A stretch of 64,000 bases of DNA, from positions 84,034 to 148,033 of the forward strand of contig DATIII010000002.1 of the NCBI GenBank assembly GCA_035479795.1, written 5' to 3'. The notes below the pieces were generated by a model. It did no database searches. It saw only the letters and a program-made list of their open reading frames with translations, and was not told the origin of the DNA. Of the stretch, positions 34,012 to 61,540 are shown piece by piece. The translations under genes were made by a program, and so were the position numbers. Position 1 is the first letter of the stretch; every line of letters begins with the position of its first letter. Source of the DNA: Candidatus Saccharimonadales bacterium. Its GTDB lineage: Bacteria > Patescibacteriota > Saccharimonadia > UBA4664 > SCTI01.

Positions 34012-36858
34012 TTAGCCGCAGCCGGTGTTGTTACCACAGCTGTTGCAGGTGTAGCACGAGCCCGTCCGCTGCATCATGCCGCCGCACTGGCTGCAGGCCG
34101 GACCCAGCTCCAGGCCGGGCAGGCTGTGGTTGCCATTGCTGGGGGCGGCCGTGATGGACGAACCCATCTCGGCGGTCTCGTTGGCCTTGACCTCGGACGG
34201 CACCTCGGAGGGCGCCACCTCGGTCACCTTCATCTCGCCGGCCGCACCATCGACGAGGGTGGTCTCGGCCAGCTCGGGGATCTGAATACCCAGAGCCTCC
34301 ATGTGCTCGGGCTCGTGCCGCATGTAACGCGACGCCAGCCAGCGCATGATGTAGTCAGGCATGGACTTGGCGAACGGGATCTCCGGGTTGCGGGTAATCC
34401 CCTCTGGCTCGAACTTCATGTGCGAGAACTTGTACACCAGCGTCTCGAGCGGCACCCCGTACTGGAGCGCGATCGAAATCGCCGTGGCAAAGGAGTTCAT
34501 CATCCCCCGCAAGGTCGATCCCTCCTTGCCAATGTCGGTGAGGAAGATCTCCCCAACGGTGCCGTCCTCGTACAAGCCGGCGGTGATGTACCACTCGAAC
34601 CCGGCCACCTCGGCCTTGTGCGTCAGCGACTGCCGCTCCTTGGGCATGCGGTTGCGACGCGGGCCGGCCTCAGCGATGGCCTTGGCCACGATGGCCTCGA
34701 CATCGCTGGGGGTGTAGGCGGCCTTGGCCGCCTGCTTCTTGCCCCCGACGGTGACGTAGGCCTGGGCGGCCTTGGAGCCGTCGACGTAGAGTGCCAGGGC
34801 CTTGACCCCGTGCTTCCACGCCTGGATGTAGGCGTCCATCACGTCCTCGGCGGTGGCCTTCGCAGGGAGGTTGACCGTCTTGGAAATGGCGCCAGAGATG
34901 AAGGGCTGAACCGACCCCATCATCTTGATGTGCCCCATGTGGCTGATCGCCCGCGCCCCAACCGCAACGTCGAACACCGGGAGATGGTCGTCGGACAGGT
35001 GCGGCGCATCGGACAGGTCACCCTTGGCATCGAGGTGCTCGAGGATCTCGTCGATGTGATTCGACTTGTACCCCAAGCTCTCCAGAGCCGGCCGAACCGA
35101 CTGATTGACCATCTTGATCCGGCCGCCGCCCACTAGGTCCTTGAGCTTCACCAAGGAGAAGTCGGGCTCGACGCCGGTGGTGTCGCAATCCATCAGGAAC
35201 GAGATCGTCCCCGTCGGCGCTAGCACCGTGGCCTGGGCGTTGCGGTAGCCATTGATCTCGCCCTCGGCGACCGCTGCTTCCCAGTCCTCCTGGGCTGCAG
35301 CCAGCAGCATGGAGTCCGAGCAGTGCTCGATCTCGCGGCTGGCGTCGCGATGCATGCGCATCACGTTGTTGTGTGGCTCGCGGTTCTCCTCGTAGCGGTC
35401 GTAGGGGCCGACAGCCTCAGCGAACCGCGCCGAGTTGAGGTAGGCCCGTCCGGTCATCAGCGCCGTGATAGCGGCAGCCAGCCCGCGACCCTCGTCGGAG
35501 TCATAGGGCAGGCCGCTCTGCATCAGGTAGGCGCCAAGATCGGCGTAGCCGAGACCAAGCTGCCGGAAAGCCCGTGCGTTGTCCCCGATCTTCTCGGTGG
35601 GATAGCTGGACGGGCCAACGATGATCTCCTGCGCCAGGTAGACGATGTCGACGACGTGGCGCATGGTTGCGACGTCGAACGTGCCATCCGGAAGCCGAAA
35701 CTTGGTCAGACGCAGCGAGGCCAGGTTGCAAGCCGAATCGTCGACATGCATGTACTCGCTGCACGGGTTCGAGGCGTTGATGCGCCCCGAGTTCGGGCAG
35801 GTGTGCCACTGGTTGATGATGGTGTCGAACTGAATGCCGGGGTCAGCGCAGCGCCAGGCTGCGTCGGCCACCGCCACCATCAGCTCGCGAGCCGTCATCG
35901 GCTGACCCGTCTCCGGATCGACCACGTCATGCTGTGAGCCGTCGATCCGCCACCGGACTTGCCAGGGCGCCGTCTCCCCACCCTCCACCAGCGACATGAA
36001 GTCGTCGGTGACGCGGATGGAGTTGTTGGCATTCTGGAAGGGCACCCGCCAGCGATCCTTGCCGTCGACGGACACGTCGTAGCCGAGCGCGTCCAGCTCC
36101 TTGGCAAAGTCCTCAGCATCCGCCTTGCAGCGGGCAAAATGGAGGATGTCCGGATGGTCGACCTCTAGGACAACCATCTTGGCGGCCCGGCGGGTCTTGC
36201 CACCGGACTTGATGACCCCGGCCCAGGCGTCAGCGCCGAGCATGAAGGACACTGGGCCCGAAGCGGTGCCGCCCTTACTGAGCGGCTCCATCGACCCACG
36301 GATCTTCGACAGGTTGATGCCGGAACCCGACCCACCTCGGAAGATCTTCCCCTCCTGGGTGTTCCAGAAGAGGATGTCGTCCATCTCGTCCTCTGTTGAG
36401 AGGATGAAGCAAGCCGAGCACTGCGGCTGCTCCTCGAATCCGACGTTGAACCAGACAGGGCTGTTGAAGGCCGCATACTGGTGGAGCAGGATGTGGGTCA
36501 ACTCGTCGCGAAAGGCGTTGCCGTCTTCCTCGGTCGCGAAGTAACCCAGCTCCTGACCCCAAGCGGCGATCGTGCCGGCAACGCGGCCGATCATCTGCTT
36601 GACGCTGTTCTCGCGCGCCGGCTTATCCAGCTGGCCGCGGAAGTACTTCTGCGACACAATGTTGGTCGCGGTCAAGCTCCAGGTCTTGGGGAACTCGACA
36701 TTCTTCTGCTTGAAGCTGGGGTTGTCAGGATCGCCGATCAGCGCCGTCCGCTTCTCCCACTCGACAGAGTCGAAGGGGTCGGCACCAGGCGTCGTGAAAA
36801 CGCGGCGGACCACCAGACCAGAGTCCTGATCCAGGCGCTGCTGCATGGTTCCAGCCAT
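34012..36858 (-). CDS. nrdJ: Class II (adenosylcobalamin-dependent) ribonucleotide reductase
   Basis: 948 aa with a class II RNR core and a C-terminal Cys-rich tail (CSQCGG...CYTCNSCG). Clearly GC-richer than its neighbours, with long antisense ORFs. Confidence 0.92.
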   Translation of the reverse strand: MAGTMQQRLDQDSGLVVRRVFTTPGADPFDSVEWEKRTALIGDPDNPSFKQKNVEFPKTWSLTATNIVSQKYFRGQLDKPARENSVKQMIGRVAGTIAAWGQELGYFATEEDGNAFRDELTHILLHQYAAFNSPVWFNVGFEEQPQCSACFILSTEDEMDDILFWNTQEGKIFRGGSGSGINLSKIRGSMEPLSKGGTASGPVSFMLGADAWAGVIKSGGKTRRAAKMVVLEVDHPDILHFARCKADAEDFAKELDALGYDVSVDGKDRWRVPFQNANNSIRVTDDFMSLVEGGETAPWQVRWRIDGSQHDVVDPETGQPMTARELMVAVADAAWRCADPGIQFDTIINQWHTCPNSGRINASNPCSEYMHVDDSACNLASLRLTKFRLPDGTFDVATMRHVVDIVYLAQEIIVGPSSYPTEKIGDNARAFRQLGLGYADLGAYLMQSGLPYDSDEGRGLAAAITALMTGRAYLNSARFAEAVGPYDRYEENREPHNNVMRMHRDASREIEHCSDSMLLAAAQEDWEAAVAEGEINGYRNAQATVLAPTGTISFLMDCDTTGVEPDFSLVKLKDLVGGGRIKMVNQSVRPALESLGYKSNHIDEILEHLDAKGDLSDAPHLSDDHLPVFDVAVGARAISHMGHIKMMGSVQPFISGAISKTVNLPAKATAEDVMDAYIQAWKHGVKALALYVDGSKAAQAYVTVGGKKQAAKAAYTPSDVEAIVAKAIAEAGPRRNRMPKERQSLTHKAEVAGFEWYITAGLYEDGTVGEIFLTDIGKEGSTLRGMMNSFATAISIALQYGVPLETLVYKFSHMKFEPEGITRNPEIPFAKSMPDYIMRWLASRYMRHEPEHMEALGIQIPELAETTLVDGAAGEMKVTEVAPSEVPSEVKANETAEMGSSITAAPSNGNHSLPGLELGPACSQCGGMMQRTGSCYTCNSCGNNTGCG

Positions 36859-37070: not shown

Positions 37071-37553
37071 TTAAACCTGCCCGAGACTGCGGGATTTTAG
37101 CTTGGCTACCTCCGCTTCAAAGCTTTCAATGTCGGCAAATGAGCGATACACACTGGCAAACCGTACGTAAGCCACATCGTCCAAGCCCATCAACTTGGTC
37201 ATTACAATCTCGCCGACTTTGGCCGCTGGAATCTCCGCCTCGCCGATGGCCCGGACCTCTCGCTCGATTTCATCAATGACTTCCTCGATCCGGCCAATCG
37301 AAATCGGGCGCTTTTCAGTAGCCCGGTACAGGCCACCCGCCACCTTTTGACGATTAAACGGCTCACGGCGGCCGTCCTTTTTAACTATGGCCACACTCGG
37401 CCGTTCCAGCCGCTCATAGGTTGTAAAGCGCAGACCACACTTAAGACACTGCCGACGCCGGCGAATTGATGCCCCCTCTTCTAAGTCACGTGACTCGATG
37501 ACCTTAGAGTCTAAATATTCACACTCGTGACACTTCACGTGCTTCCCCCACAT
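37071..37553 (-). CDS. nrdR: Transcriptional repressor NrdR (Zn-ribbon + ATP-cone)
   Basis: VKCHECEYLDSKVIESR Zn ribbon and SIRRRRQC. The start could be the ATG at 37553 or a GTG 15 nt downstream. Confidence 0.9.
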   Translation of the reverse strand: MWGKHVKCHECEYLDSKVIESRDLEEGASIRRRRQCLKCGLRFTTYERLERPSVAIVKKDGRREPFNRQKVAGGLYRATEKRPISIGRIEEVIDEIEREVRAIGEAEIPAAKVGEIVMTKLMGLDDVAYVRFASVYRSFADIESFEAEVAKLKSRSLGQV

Positions 37554-43710: not shown

Positions 43711-43735
43711 GCCTTAAATTATGCCAAACAAGTGC

Positions 43736-43789
43736 GAAGCCCGCCATTCCTCTGTTTTCAAGAGGACTCGGTGAACCGAGTGGCGGGCT
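43736..43789 (-). other. Nested RNA structure: 10-bp outer stem enclosing two hairpins, between GC module 2 and HIT gene
   Basis: AAGCCCGCCA [CCTCTgttttcaAGAGG][ACTCGGtgaaCCGAGT] TGGCGGGCTT, read directly. Confidence 0.4.
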
Positions 43790-43830
43790 TTTGCAGCCTT
43801 CCGGCAATGGTGTCGGAAAGTTGTGGTGGG

Positions 43831-44118
43831 TCATGCAGCGAAGGGGGCGGACCGAAGCAGTTCGCAGGCTTCGTCGGCATGACCAGGAGCGGCGATGGCT
43901 CGCAGAACGGCGCTTTCGTCGGTAGAGATGGCGCCACGGATGTGACGCAGGCCGTGGTTACAAACCTGGTTCACCAGCTCCAGCTGGACCTTGTCGACCG
44001 TTTCCAGACGAGCCGTGTCGAGCGGGTTGACGATGCGCAGATCACGGACGATCGGGCGCTGATTGGTGCTTCCAGACATTGACCTTTTCCTTCCATGAAT
44101 CGGTCGTTTGTGGGACAC
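43831..44118 (-). CDS. Hypothetical 95-aa protein (GC-rich module 2; own promoter region and RBS GGAAGGAAAAGG)
   Basis: ORF with a strong RBS. High GC. I do not recognise a family. Confidence 0.45.
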   Translation of the reverse strand: MSHKRPIHGRKRSMSGSTNQRPIVRDLRIVNPLDTARLETVDKVQLELVNQVCNHGLRHIRGAISTDESAVLRAIAAPGHADEACELLRSAPFAA

Positions 44119-44184
44119 CTAAATTATCTTATAGCATAAGCGTTTTGTCGAGTTGTTTTCTCGAATAAATTATGTCGATGTAAC

Positions 44185-44219
44185 AAAAAGGCCCCAGCCG
44201 CCGAATGGCGGCCAGAGCC
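44185..44219 (-). terminator. Terminator after module-2 gene pair (13-bp stem with G-U pairs + U5)
   Basis: Minus-strand RNA forms GGCUCUGGCCGCC AUUC GGCGGCUGGGGCC followed by UUUUUG. Confidence 0.55.
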
Positions 44220-44240
44220 GATTTGGTGTGAGATTTTCAG

Positions 44241-44594
44241 CTAGGTGATGATCGCCCGCTGCCGGTTCGGCGCCCGCCGGATGACCGGCGGCTGGCGATC
44301 GGGCTGTGACATCTTCGGCGGTGTCACCGGCGCCTGCTCGCGGATGAACCGCCAGACGCACCTTATGGCAACGTAGAACACCGGATCCTTCGCCCTCCGG
44401 CAGCCCCGGTCGCCGTAGTTCAGCACCCGAATCTTCAGCCGATCGAAGTCACGATCTGCCACCAGCTGGCTGGCATCATGCGAGTCCTCGCCGAAGTGCT
44501 TGGCCAGGAAGATCATGCCCACACGGGCCAGATGCTCCTGACGGCGCAGTCGAGTGGTCAACTCGAGGCTGTAAGCCGGCTTGGACGCCTTCAC
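44241..44594 (-). CDS. Hypothetical 117-aa protein (module 2, GTG start overlapping upstream stop as GTGA)
   Basis: Translationally coupled to the upstream 78-aa ORF. Contains an RLRRQEH segment. Family unknown. Confidence 0.5.
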   Translation of the reverse strand: MKASKPAYSLELTTRLRRQEHLARVGMIFLAKHFGEDSHDASQLVADRDFDRLKIRVLNYGDRGCRRAKDPVFYVAIRCVWRFIREQAPVTPPKMSQPDRQPPVIRRAPNRQRAIIT

Positions 44595-44827
44595 GCCGCC
44601 ACCAGCTTCTTGGCTCGCCGGGCCTCCGCCTCCTGACGGTGGCGCCGGTCCCTGGCATCGCTGGCCTTCCGGCGAAACATGCGCTTGAGCGCCATCTTGT
44701 TGGGCAGGCAGCGGCTGTTCTGGATGTGGCGCAGGGCATTGTCCAGGTTCGCCGTATCTGCGAGCTGACTCTCAGTCAGGCCCAAGGCGGTGAGGATGCC
44801 ATCGAACTGCTCGTTAATTTTTGCCAT
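44591..44827 (-). CDS. Hypothetical 78-aa protein with basic C-terminal tail (module 2, first gene)
   Basis: GAGGAGAG RBS. Helical and acidic N-terminal half, Arg/Lys-rich C-terminus. Confidence 0.5.
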   Translation of the reverse strand: MAKINEQFDGILTALGLTESQLADTANLDNALRHIQNSRCLPNKMALKRMFRRKASDARDRRHRQEAEARRAKKLVAA

Positions 44828-44886
44828 CTCTCCTCAGAAATGGTCGCTGGATAGGGACTGGTCTCACACCATGTAAGACTTAAGGA

Positions 44887-44914
44887 TTATGGCCATAAAT
44901 GACAATTATGTCAA
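44887..44914 (-). promoter_or_regulatory. Sigma70-like promoter (TTGACA-16nt-CATAAT) driving module-2 operon
   Basis: Read on the minus strand. A ~55-nt leader runs to the RBS. Confidence 0.45.
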
Positions 44915-44920
44915 TATGAA

Positions 44921-44948
44921 TTATAAAAGTGCCTTAGCATAGGCACTT
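44921..44948 (-). terminator. Terminator hairpin after SPFH-membrane protein operon
   Basis: AAGUGCCU AUGCUA AGGCACUU followed by UUAUAAUUC on the minus-strand RNA. Confidence 0.5.
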
Positions 44949-45214
44949 TAACTGCTCGGCGTGGTGGCTTTTAGGCTATGAGTGAGATAAACAAAGAAAT
45001 TATAGATATCCATGACAAAGTGCCGTAATACCGGGATGATAAAGGGCAGCAGTACGATGACAATGATCAGAGCCAACCAGCTATGCCGTACCAATGCAAT
45101 CAAAGCGCCAATCAGTCCGATAAGCACAAATAAAGTGACTAGCCACTGCAGCGGCGCTGGGAAGAATCCCAGAAACTGGTTATAAGCACTGACTAGAAAG
45201 TCGTAGAGATTCAC
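44948..45214 (-). CDS. Small membrane protein (hypothetical; downstream partner of SPFH gene)
   Basis: 88 aa with 2-3 transmembrane helices. Confidence 0.5.
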
Positions 45215-45981
45215 TTAGCCGGCTTCTCCGATTCAACAAAGGCTTGGACACTTTTAAAGGTATCCATGAATTGATTCGGAAAGATTATGGTTGAGTTCTT
45301 TTCGACCGCGATTTCTGAGAGCACCTGCAAATTTCGCAGCTGCAAAGCAATTGGATGAGCTGCGATGATGTCGGCCGCCTGCCCAAGCTTGGCTGCACTT
45401 TGGAACTCACCATCGGCCGCAATCACCTTGGCTCGCTTTTCGCGTTCAGCCTCGGCTTGCTTGGCCATGGCCCGCTGCATGCTCTCGGGCAGCTGGATAT
45501 CCTTCAGCTCCACGACGTTAATAACTACACCCCAAACCTCGGTCTGGGAATCTAAAATCTTTTTAATACTCACATTAATTTTTTCAGTACTACTTAGCAC
45601 ATCGTCTAAATCTGATTGACCGATAACATTACGCACTGTTGTCTGAGCGATCTGATTAATAGCGATGGCCACATCTTGGATCTCTACCAGGGACTTAGTC
45701 GGATCGCTGACACGGTAGTAGGCCACGGCTGCCACGTCGATGGAAACATTATCTTTGGTAATGATATTCTGCGACTGGATGGGCATGGTTTGAATCCGCA
45801 TATTCACCTTTTTGAGCACGTCGATGATCGGGATGATCAAGCGCAGACCAGGCTGCTTAACCCCGCTCCGCACCCGCCCTAGACGAAACACCACTCCCCG
45901 CTCGTATTGCTGAACAATTCGTACGCCGGTGAGCAATATAATGATGACAATAAAAACCAGGAATTCCATCGCAGACCTCAC
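45211..45981 (-). CDS. SPFH/band-7 (stomatin/prohibitin-like) family protein
   Basis: N-terminal transmembrane segment, an SPFH domain, and a C-terminal coiled coil ([14 protein letters not shown]). Confidence 0.85.
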
Positions 45982-59759: not shown

Positions 59760-60380
59760 CTAGCCGCCGAGCTTCTGCAGCTTGGCCAGGAAGCCCGACT
59801 TGGGCTTCGGGGCCGGGTCGCCTGCCGGCCGGGACCGGATGGGTTCCGGCTCGGGCTCGACTGCCCTCCGGGGCCGAGCCGCAGGGGGCGGCTCCGTCGT
59901 CCGGATGTCGTCGAGGATCAGGCGCTGCCGCGGGCCGCGAAGGCGGTCTGCGATTTCAGCATCCTCCCGAGCGCGACGACTGCGTTCTGCCTCAAGCGAG
60001 GCGTGCTGGTCCTCCAACCTAATGAGCTCAGCTTCGAGCTCATTGAAGGTCCGTGTCGCAGCGATAGCCGCATTCTCGGCGGCCGCCACCTCTTCCCGCT
60101 TTGAGAGAATCCTCTCGCGCAGGCTTGGAGCCGGAGCGGGATCAGCCGCCGGGGCGGCCGGCGTGACGAACGCGAAATCCGCTCCGGGGAAAGCCGGAGC
60201 TGCAGCCACGGGAGCCGGCCCAGGTGTCGGTGCGGCAGCCGGAGCGGGCTCCGGCTGGGCGGCCACAGGGGCCGCAGCGGGTGCCGAAGCCCCCGAGTCG
60301 TTGTCGGGCACAGGGATGGAAACGGCAGCGTCTGCTGTCGCCTCGGCCTCGGCCACGATCGCTTCGATGTCGCTCGACAT
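59760..60380 (-). CDS. Hypothetical Ala/Pro-rich protein with central coiled coil (module 3, second gene)
   Basis: AGGAGGG RBS 4 nt upstream of the ATG. 206 aa. Low-complexity AP-rich N-terminal half, then a REEVAAAENA...LEAELIRLEDQHASLEAE coiled coil. Confidence 0.5.
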   Translation of the reverse strand: MSSDIEAIVAEAEATADAAVSIPVPDNDSGASAPAAAPVAAQPEPAPAAAPTPGPAPVAAAPAFPGADFAFVTPAAPAADPAPAPSLRERILSKREEVAAAENAAIAATRTFNELEAELIRLEDQHASLEAERSRRAREDAEIADRLRGPRQRLILDDIRTTEPPPAARPRRAVEPEPEPIRSRPAGDPAPKPKSGFLAKLQKLGG

Positions 60381-60388
60381 CAGCCCTC

Positions 60389-61318
60389 CTAGTCGTTGAC
60401 CAGCAGGCCGAGTTCAGCCCGCTTCTCGTTTTTCAGGATCTCCGCCCTGGCCTTGATTTCCCTGGCCTTGGCGGGGTACTTCGCGATCTGGCCGGCAATG
60501 GCCAGATCGAACTCCTTGACCCACTCCACGAACGCCTCCTTGCGGGCGACGTGCTTGGGATGGGTCTCGAGGTGCTGAGCCACGAGCCGCACCAGAAGGT
60601 ACGGCACATCCGCGATGCCCGACACCAGGTTCTCCCAGATGTCGGAACGAGAGTCGAAGAACGCATCTTCGCTCTCAAACCGCGGATCGCCGCAGATGAT
60701 GCACCTCGACGAGGCGCTCGCGGCAAACGACAACTGGCCCATGAGCCGGATGCGTGCGTTGAGGCAATCCCGGCAAAAACGCGGGAAAGGCGACGTGCGC
60801 ACATCCTTGCGCTGACCGCGCCTGCGAACATCCCGAGGATTGGCGATCACGTTGTGATCGCACACCCCGAGGTATTCGTAGTAGCCCTGCTGGCTCTCCT
60901 GGGCCATCGAGACCTTGGGATCGGGCGGGTTCCAGGTCGGCAGCGCCGCCTGATCCGTCTCCACCTGCTGATCGATGTCCATGAGAAGCGTCAGGTCCTG
61001 GCGAACGATCGCCTCCAGCTCGGGGTCGATCTCGGTCGAGCCGTTGACCTTCCCCTGCCGGCGAAGTGCCGGATAGGCAGTGGCGAAGTACACGGGCTTG
61101 ATGCCCCTGAGCCCTTGCGCCACGAAGCCACCCAGCAGCTTGTCGATTGTGACCTTCCGAGAAGCCTCGGACTCCAGCTTCGCGAACTCTTCGGGAGAGA
61201 TCTTGGAGCCCTCCTTCAAGCCCGAGCGCTCGAGAATGTCAGCCATCTGCTCGATGGTCAGCCCCACATCAGGGGCCACCTTGCGAGCCAGACGGTTTCC
61301 GGTTGCCGTGGTCGGCAT
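60389..61318 (-). CDS. Hypothetical 310-aa protein with Cys cluster (CDHN...CRDC...CIIC; putative zinc ribbon) (module 3, first gene)
   Basis: Start at MPTTATGN, with GGAGG 6 nt upstream. The Cys spacing was read directly. I do not recognise a family. Confidence 0.5.
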   Translation of the reverse strand: MPTTATGNRLARKVAPDVGLTIEQMADILERSGLKEGSKISPEEFAKLESEASRKVTIDKLLGGFVAQGLRGIKPVYFATAYPALRRQGKVNGSTEIDPELEAIVRQDLTLLMDIDQQVETDQAALPTWNPPDPKVSMAQESQQGYYEYLGVCDHNVIANPRDVRRRGQRKDVRTSPFPRFCRDCLNARIRLMGQLSFAASASSRCIICGDPRFESEDAFFDSRSDIWENLVSGIADVPYLLVRLVAQHLETHPKHVARKEAFVEWVKEFDLAIAGQIAKYPAKAREIKARAEILKNEKRAELGLLVND

Positions 61319-61540
61319 TGAACCTCCAGGTTGGAGAGAGATTCGCCAGTCGTAGGTCGGCGACACCTTCTAGGGATCGCCTTCCGGCGACGGGTTACTA
61401 CTCGTCTCTTAGAGGAGACGACCGGTTACAGCATGTTTCGGGTGTGTATCCAAGGCCTTTTAAGGGCCTTTGGGTACGAAACTTTATCTAGATTTCAAAC
61501 TCCAACAGATGAGAAATGGGTTCCTCAAGTGCAATGGAGT

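Follow-up and report, generated by a model that had tools for sequence, protein, structure and literature searches.

A compositionally foreign cassette of three small-protein genes in a variable slot of soil Saccharimonadales, resembling a toxin-antitoxin module in layout only

What is encoded by the block of GC-rich DNA that lies between the genes p88 and HIT in a Candidatus Saccharimonadales contig (DATIII010000002.1, positions 84,034 to 148,033; this 64-kb stretch, at its full length, is referred to as the window), and how did it come to be there? An earlier note, made from the letters of the stretch, had described it as a self-contained cassette of three small open reading frames (ORFs), the first two arranged like a toxin-antitoxin (TA) or small defence module. 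The high GC content is evident in 400-nt windows, which reach 65% against approximately 50% nearby, and the earlier description held: the cassette is self-contained, of foreign composition and divided into two transcription units. All three ORFs are real genes; they represent three new small-protein families, and the cassette is TA-like in layout only. The reading favoured here, which is held with about even confidence, is that of an anciently acquired, vertically retained and fast-evolving accessory cassette, which occupies a variable slot between p88 and HIT in a group of soil Saccharimonadales. The three genes are as follows.

44591 to 44827, minus strand: p78 gene, 78 amino acids (aa), with homologues in the related loci L084 and L086 and an AlphaFold2 (AF2) model.
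44241 to 44594, minus strand: p117 gene, 117 aa, whose GTG start overlaps the p78 stop codon (GTGA), with homologues P0004 and P0005.
43831 to 44079, minus strand: p82 gene, 82 aa, identified by two gene callers, the starts of its homologues and a coding-frame signal.

The first two ORFs were present as the earlier note had described them, sharing a stop/start overlap of 4 nt (GTGA) that is also shared by the first two cassette genes in L084 and L086; this overlap implies that p78 and p117 are made by translational coupling. The third ORF had been given as 95 aa. That version is the maximal ORF from a GTG at 44118, which stands upstream of GGAAGGAAAAGG and approximately at the predicted transcription start. 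Because GGAAGGAAAAGG and a separate promoter (P2) precede the ATG at 44079, and because the gene callers and the starts of the homologues agree, the gene is better read as 82 aa, ending at 43831; this length was returned by two independent gene callers, and the homologues of p82 (81, 80 and 80 aa) begin at the equivalent MxGST.

The possibility that the ORFs arose by chance in non-coding DNA of high GC content, or that the region is an assembly chimera, is effectively refuted. Stop codons are scarce in such DNA, which therefore yields long ORFs by chance, and several alternative ORFs of 40–90 aa do overlap in this region. However, the G+C fractions at first, second and third codon positions (GC1/GC2/GC3) were 0.63/0.44/0.82 for p78 and 0.65/0.46/0.84 for p117, and this coding signature (GC1 > GC2 << GC3) was confined to the called frames and absent from the alternatives; the profile matches that of a GC-rich ribonucleotide reductase (RNR) gene in the window. 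An exhaustive HMMER scan of 1.84 billion representative proteins with p117 as the query returned two homologues, P0004 (45% identical, E = 1.8e-15) and P0005 (38% identical, E = 8.5e-11), both on contigs that carry counterparts of all three proteins in unchanged order. The ORFs are uninterrupted, and the GTGA overlap is kept, in three lineages that retain just 51–73% DNA identity, and the AF2 models, which were built from alignments of just three sequences, were confident. One NCBI assembly (GCA_964594805.1) and two independent Logan assemblies have a matching arrangement over 10–20 kb, with 99.98–100% identity, so the region is not an assembly chimera or artefact. The source population is a soil Saccharimonadales (TM7) metagenome-assembled genome, and the database entry corresponding to p117 itself is a hypothetical protein of 'Candidatus Saccharimonadales bacterium'.

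The protein p78 has an isoelectric point (pI) of 10.9, and was modelled as three short N-terminal helices followed by a long, basic C-terminal helix (residues 2–15, 19–23, 25–37 and 44–77; mean predicted local distance difference test score, pLDDT, of 88). Across its family the pI is 10.2–10.9, the N-terminal part being acidic to neutral and the C-terminal helix carrying a charge of +10. The protein p117 has a net charge of +12, and combines a four-helix core (residues 8–87, with helices at 8–33, 38–46, 50–64 and 71–87; pLDDT approximately 90, and mostly above 90) with a disordered tail rich in Arg, Pro and Gln. Its family has a pI of 10.8–11.4, a net charge of +12 to +13, many invariant arginines and an Arg-rich tail. 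Taken together, the p78 and p117 families span a pI of 10.2–11.4 and a net charge of +6 to +13, and both proteins are probably nucleic-acid-binding, judging from the modelled structures and their charge. The charge of p82 is near neutral.

An RLRRQEH stretch near the N-terminus of p117 had been put forward as a possible HEPN-like Rx4-6H motif. Alignment of the window protein with P0004 and P0005 did not bear this out: the invariant residues are R17, Q19 and H21, and the invariant Arg and His form an R-x3-H pair (R17, H21), situated in helix 1 of the four-helix core. The window p117 and P0004 also have an Arg at x4 or x5, which P0005 lacks, and the Rx4-6H spacing is therefore not conserved. Comparison of the p117 model with the PDB by Foldseek returned no HEPN protein.

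None of the three proteins matches a known family in Pfam, NCBIfam, PHROGs, PADLOC or the PDB, in agreement with the earlier note, which had recognised none. Pfam, NCBIfam, PHROGs and PADLOC were searched with all three proteins as well as with homologues, and no match fell below E = 0.02; with PADLOC-DB v2, even a cut-off as lax as E = 1 gave no family for the three proteins of the window or for six homologues. Sequence and profile searches of the PDB gave no match for p78 or p117. The p82 profile did match a designed TPR-like protein (E = 1.7e-5), which proved to be the sum of five weak repeats, each with an independent E-value (i-E) above 5; the match was discounted and is only a hint of a helical hairpin. 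Foldseek comparisons (p117 and p78 models against the PDB; p117 against BFVD) yielded nothing better than E = 0.34, and weak matches to sigma factors and to ESAT-6/needle proteins were dismissed as non-specific helical similarity. A word-indexed search of 5.8 billion proteins produced self matches only; tblastn searches of phages and plasmids, and four scans of viral contigs (IMG/VR), found no relatives. There were no paralogues of the cassette in the window or among approximately 90 fetched loci, the three families were mutually unrelated when compared by hhalign, and a search of the literature found no description of such a cassette.

The cassette sits in a neighbourhood encoded entirely on the minus strand, in the order relA/spoT, hisS, SPFH, p88, cassette, HIT, rpsU, yqeY, ybeY and dgkA. 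The earlier note had placed it between HIT and SPFH; the HIT border stands, but on the other side the cassette adjoins p88, and SPFH is one gene further away.

45211 to 45981, minus strand: SPFH/Band-7 gene, between hisS and p88, whose TGA stop overlaps the GTG start of p88 (GTGA).
44948 to 45214, minus strand: p88 gene, encoding an 88-aa membrane protein, the stable left anchor of the slot.

The p88 protein is 88–90 aa across lineages, very hydrophobic (grand average of hydropathy, GRAVY, of 1.28) and without a Pfam family; its counterparts were located at 651–917 in L084, 1364–1630 in L086 and 5001–5273 in L092. The gene order in L084 is hisS, p88 and genes for 74, 124 and 81 aa, while L086, as extended by L090 and L091, reads priA, secDF, recJ, relA, hisS, p88, genes for 66, 124 and 80 aa, and HIT. 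Hence, two divergent lineages without SPFH carry the cassette at this very site, which contradicts the suggestion of a recent insertion into an otherwise empty HIT-SPFH interval. In L084, in L086/L090/L091 and in L092/L093, hisS is followed directly by p88, and SPFH is present at this position in the window lineage only; since the relatives that bear the cassette lack SPFH, it is SPFH and not the cassette that constitutes the lineage-specific difference at the site. SPFH itself failed as an anchor for comparison, because its closest relatives (69–74% identical, in other Saccharibacteria) have wholly different neighbours.

The more distant loci L092 and L093 (p88 55% identical) keep recJ, hisS, a p88-like gene, HIT, rpsU, yqeY and ybeY, but here the slot is filled by a MarR regulator and a 194-aa Rpf-like transglycosylase (PF06737) on the opposite strand (L092 5166–6465, and also in L093), the gene for the latter having a GC content of approximately 64%. 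This difference in cargo identifies the p88-HIT interval as a variable slot that receives different GC-rich genes. In this respect it resembles known variable slots and hotspots, since the p88 and HIT anchors bracket the cassette, the cassette with SPFH upstream, or the MarR and Rpf-like pair, and the cargo is GC-rich relative to the genome. It differs from them in that neither a recombinase gene nor repeats of the attachment type occur at the cassette, which has persisted for a long time with conserved, native-like signals.

Heterogeneity was observed within one of the relatives. L090 and L091, which come from two samples, are 100% identical to L086 over 1959 nt, ending 14 nt into the gene for the 124-aa member of the p117 family (p124); in L094, a contig of the sample that also gave L091, the sequence picks up again 19 nt short of the p124 stop codon, at 96.4% identity (L086 1959–2298 compared). 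This break indicates a recombination junction, strain-level heterogeneity or hypervariability, or a coverage gap related to GC content.

The composition and divergence of the cassette set it apart from its flanks in every lineage. Within the window, GC3 was 0.82 for p78 and 0.84 for p117, against 0.47–0.71 for approximately 65 other ORFs, and comparable values were seen in the class II RNR gene (0.87) and a 325-aa ORF (0.81) and in no others; for p82, it was 0.69–0.71 over the whole gene and approximately 0.75 in the central part. Across the three lineages, eight of nine cassette genes had a GC3 of 0.80–0.90, the other being the window p82 (0.69), compared with 0.55–0.68 in the flanks. Protein identity between lineages was 83–94% for HisRS, 70–78% for p88 and 79% for HIT, while it was 42–55% for p78, 37–46% for p117 and 36–70% for p82. 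Nonsynonymous divergence (dN) was 0.21–0.79 in the cassette and 0.05–0.20 in the flanks, and the cassette proteins diverge approximately 1.5 to 12 times as much as those of the flanks (mostly 2 to 12 times in terms of dN). Approximate ratios of nonsynonymous to synonymous divergence (dN/dS) of 0.24–0.76, which are unreliable at such divergence, indicate relaxed or diversifying selection on the cassette.

The synonymous sites of the flanks are essentially saturated (proportion of synonymous differences, pS, of 0.66–0.86). The presence of the cassette at the same site in lineages separated by such a distance shows that it is not a recent insertion but predates their split. The earlier note had weighed against its cassette the prospect of conservation at this site with native composition; conservation at the site across the lineage was found, but the composition was foreign in every lineage. 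At four-fold degenerate sites of conserved codon families, the cassette was 52% identical, against 36% expected at saturation, with a G+C fraction (GC4) of 0.84; the flanks were 37% identical, against 29% expected, with a GC4 of 0.69. By our own estimate of the decay, each lineage would have lost approximately half of an ancestral GC excess, which fits a single import, older than the split of the lineages, from a donor with a GC3 of at least 0.95, and partial amelioration thereafter. The composition is therefore best explained by one old import from a very GC-rich donor, which would account for the four-fold data without active maintenance of GC by biased gene conversion; the latter was set aside as unnecessary, though it may still have played a part. 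Actinobacteria are the hosts on which Saccharibacteria are usually found, and the Rpf-like domain is typical of them; the presence of such a gene in the slot of a relative suggests a GC-rich donor, and the RNR gene, with its GC3 of 0.87, points likewise. No p117 homologue outside this lineage was present among the 1.84 billion representative proteins. There is no tRNA gene anywhere in the window, no integrase, transposase or recombinase gene in the cassette or its immediate flanks, and a local repeat search found short repeats only, none being recognisable as attachment-site or terminal repeats.

The transcription and translation signals of the cassette were delimited by consensus scanning, folding and comparison of the three lineages, as listed below in the direction of transcription.

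44929 to 44946, minus strand: p88 terminator hairpin, GTGCCTATGCTAAGGCAC then TTTTAT, bounding the cassette upstream and conserved in L084 and L086.
44886 to 44914, minus strand: promoter P1, TTGACA-17-CATAAT, with a score of 11/12 at corresponding positions of the window, L084 and L086.
44861 to 44879, minus strand: stem-loop GTCTTAC-ATGGT-GTGAGAC at the beginning of the 5' untranslated region (UTR), present in the consensus fold of three lineages.
44828 to 44840, minus strand: p78 ribosome-binding region, CTGAGGAGAG, directly before the ATG and invariant in three lineages.
44190 to 44219, minus strand: intrinsic terminator of p78-p117, a 13-pair stem and T-run, detected in the window, L084 and L086.
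44123 to 44151, minus strand: promoter P2, TCGACA-17-GATAAT, scoring 9–10/12 in three lineages.
44083 to 44094, minus strand: p82 ribosome-binding region, GGAAGGAAAAGG, from sequence reading and three-lineage comparison.
43722 to 43806, minus strand (core 43733–43795): Y-shaped structure (three-way junction) between p82 and HIT, abutting the HIT promoter.

The hexamers that the earlier note had assigned to the first promoter were recovered by the consensus scan at 44914–44886, with a spacer of 17 nt instead of 16; its 13-pair terminator was located at 44219–44190, and the separate promotion of the third gene was upheld by P2 at 44151–44123. These control regions, which are AT-rich and native-like, have changed less than the coding DNA: 58% of columns were invariant between the three lineages in the P1/5' UTR segment, compared with 39% in each coding sequence. 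The conserved overlap, with a single promoter and terminator, implies that p78 and p117 are co-produced in fixed proportion. The stem of their terminator is retained despite base changes between lineages, and the 5' UTR hairpin is shortened in L086 but still paired (GTCTC-GTGT-GAGAC). The ribosome-binding site and ATG of p78 may lie inside a second small hairpin. The spacer of P2 holds an invariant block, CGCTTATGCT.

The –35 hexamer of P1 forms half of a palindrome, TTGACA-N4-TGTCA(A/T), at 44899–44914, which occurs once in the 64-kb window; it is perfect in L084 and has half-sites that are symmetrical at five of six positions in the window. Its second half-site lies inside the promoter spacer, and is invariant across the three lineages. 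Since this half-site has no promoter role, the palindrome is read as a candidate operator.

Within the 5' UTR, GGTGTGAGAC (44861–44870) has an exact complement of 9–10 nt, ATCTCACACC (44225–44234), directly before the terminator and 628 nt away, which may reflect 5'–3' pairing or be coincidental. Long-range pairing between GGTGTGAGA in the 5' UTR and TCTCACACC in the 3' UTR was considered and set aside; it is kept in L084 but lost in L086, and the local hairpin explains the conservation better.

The Y-shaped structure covers approximately 60–85 nt, and its fold was far more stable than that of shuffled sequences in both the window (z = –4.1) and L086 (2714–2802; z = –6.1), with an identical architecture in the two. 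Manual comparison of the window with L086 pointed to compensated base changes in each of the three stems. The automated consensus fold, however, contained 0 both-sided changes inside the junction, a discrepancy attributed to the register of the MAFFT alignment. The 3' side of the element enters the HIT promoter (TTTGGCATAAT), and the structure is probably the terminator of p82 and its transcription unit, or else a cis-acting RNA element ahead of HIT. Rfam contained no match for this element or for the 5' UTR hairpin; the sole Rfam match, Cis8, was at chance level (E = 0.92; 21 bits, where the gathering score is 58) and fell inside the p78 coding sequence. In L086 (2691–3131) and L094, HIT was called at 146 aa from an in-frame ATG that overlaps the stop codon of the p82 homologue (ATGA); the equivalent ATG in the window opens an out-of-frame ORF of 48 aa, and HIT is 101 aa there. 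The longer call, which spans the Y-shaped element, is probably an annotation artefact.

The working model that accompanies the favoured reading, in which nucleic-acid binding, autoregulation, a partnership between the proteins and the donor are all inferred, comprises two autonomous transcription units. In the first, made up of P1, the 5' UTR hairpin, p78, p117 and their terminator, p78 and p117 may act together on nucleic acid, p117 being the putative effector by virtue of its four-helix, Arg/His-rich core and disordered Arg-rich tail, and p78, or the p78-p117 pair, might repress P1 through the TTGACA-N4-TGTCAA palindrome over the –35 hexamer. The second, consisting of P2, p82 and the Y-shaped structure, would supply a third small helical protein, possibly a modulator. 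Several points weigh against this picture. The cassette is carried by three lineages only and the conservation statistics are thin; p78 and p82 were searched against protein collections with the word-indexed tool only; the putative nucleic-acid binding is deduced from charge and helicity; and the scan of 1.84 billion representative proteins pointed to no donor. The contig break and identity jump at p124 hint at recombination, and thereby at allele exchange in place of purely vertical descent. Lastly, the second half-site of the palindrome may be the –35 hexamer of a divergent site on the plus strand (44899–44927), which reads ATGACA-17-TATAAA in the window and TTGACA-17-TATAAA in L084 and L086, and would run antisense into p88. 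The promoter scanner did not report this site in the window, L084 or L086; a divergent antisense promoter was set aside as the cause of the palindrome, its TATAAA being without the final T and doubling as the T-run of the p88 terminator.

Among the alternatives, a genuine type II TA or TA-like defence module is considered unlikely. On this view P1 would be repressed by p78, acting as a labile antitoxin that binds DNA; p117 would be a toxin of a new, all-helical kind, perhaps an RNase that uses the conserved Arg and His, and p82 an accessory. The pair does have a conserved layout of this type, namely a small gene upstream of a slightly larger one with a 4-nt overlap, a dedicated promoter with a palindrome over its –35 hexamer, and a dedicated terminator; atypical composition and fast evolution are shared with type II systems too, the feedback repression proposed in the working model would be like that of type II TA and of many other small operons that pair a regulator with an effector, and the invariance of R17, Q19 and H21 in p117 also speaks for an effector of this kind. 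The expected mobile distribution, database matches and charge were not found. No family member matched PADLOC, Pfam, NCBIfam or PHROGs, Foldseek detected neither HEPN nor another toxin fold, and the cassette has no sequence relationship to known toxins or antitoxins. Both partners are strongly basic, while classical antitoxins are usually acidic, and sequence change in the presumed toxin is no slower than in the presumed antitoxin. A patchy and widespread occurrence is usual for TA families, whereas this cassette holds a fixed position across lineages with near-saturated flanks, in one narrow lineage, without copies elsewhere, and includes a third gene with its own promoter. In the alignments, p78 ends in ...LVAA and p82 in ...FAA or ...LAA, which we take to resemble ssrA-type degrons; however, the C-terminus of p78 coincides with the GGTG...GTG initiation region of p117, so its conservation need not reflect a degron, and recognition by ClpXP was set aside. 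The lack of known-family homology, the basic charge of both partners, the equal pace of the presumed toxin and antitoxin and the syntenic, lineage-restricted distribution are the reasons for not filing the cassette as TA. Likewise, p117 is like HEPN RNase toxins (HEPN/MNT, RnlA and Csm6-type) in being small and all-alpha, with only a few residues separating a conserved Arg from a conserved His, but its R-x3-H lies in the first long helix, near the N-terminus, and there is no MNT-type partner. Small, self-regulating orphan operons on mobile elements, anti-defence acr-aca operons among them, share the very small, fast-evolving orphan proteins and a strong promoter overlapping an inverted repeat; unlike these, the cassette is chromosomal and syntenic, with no recognisable helix-turn-helix protein of the Aca type, no mobile context and no viral homologues.

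Lineage-specific housekeeping factors, that is, small basic proteins associated with the ribosome, RNA or nucleoid and allied with relA, hisS, rpsU, yqeY and ybeY, would be compatible with the high positive charge, the helices and disordered Arg-rich tail, the conserved promoters and terminators, and a stable place within a housekeeping cluster in three lineages. Such a role is somewhat less probable than a TA module, given that dN mostly exceeds that of the neighbours 2- to 12-fold, dN/dS is approximately 0.24–0.76, the codon composition is foreign, a relative with the same cluster holds other genes in the slot, and other Saccharibacteria loci have no homologues. A recent horizontal insertion between HIT and SPFH, or a moron left there by a phage, plasmid or integrative element, could account for GC and GC3 values far above native, for the orphan ORFs, for the other GC-rich modules in the window and for slot contents that vary between lineages. 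It is very unlikely, because the position of the cassette is shared by lineages in which the synonymous sites of the flanks are nearly saturated, its promoter and ribosome-binding regions are AT-rich, native-like and conserved, homologues were lacking from phages, plasmids and viral contigs, and neither an integrase in or next to the cassette, nor a tRNA gene in the window, nor attachment-type flanking repeats were found. More speculative, and about as improbable as a housekeeping role, is an undescribed three-component addiction, defence or host-interaction module of three new families, confined to soil Saccharimonadales, where p117 would be a four-helix Arg/His effector with an Arg-rich, RNA-binding tail and p78 its co-translated neutraliser and repressor. 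The locus would then be kept GC-rich and hypervariable by recurrent recombination, an idea raised because identity jumps across the p124 gene.

Under the favoured reading of an old, retained accessory cassette, the locus is a compact case in which three new small-protein families come with delineated promoters, a 5' UTR hairpin, translational coupling and terminators. Saccharimonadales are epibionts with reduced genomes, whose lineage-specific genes are mostly uncharacterised, and the cassette occupies a defined variable slot between anchor genes that different GC-rich cargo, such as the Rpf-like domain, has entered in different lineages. If it were a true TA or regulator-effector system, it would provide new folds for those classes, and a means of studying how genes pass from host to epibiont; otherwise it is an ordinary, well-documented orphan island.

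Two further GC-rich features were observed in the window. A third GC-rich module at 59760–61366, on the minus strand, comprises a 206-aa ORF rich in Ala and Pro (GC 0.70) and the 325-aa ORF (GC3 0.81), neither of which has a Pfam match. The other is the class II (B12-type) RNR gene at 34012–36858 (948 aa, GC 0.64, GC3 0.87), which is directly downstream of an nrdR gene of native composition (37071–37553), and looks like an in-place xenologous gene or else one imported long ago from a donor rich in GC.

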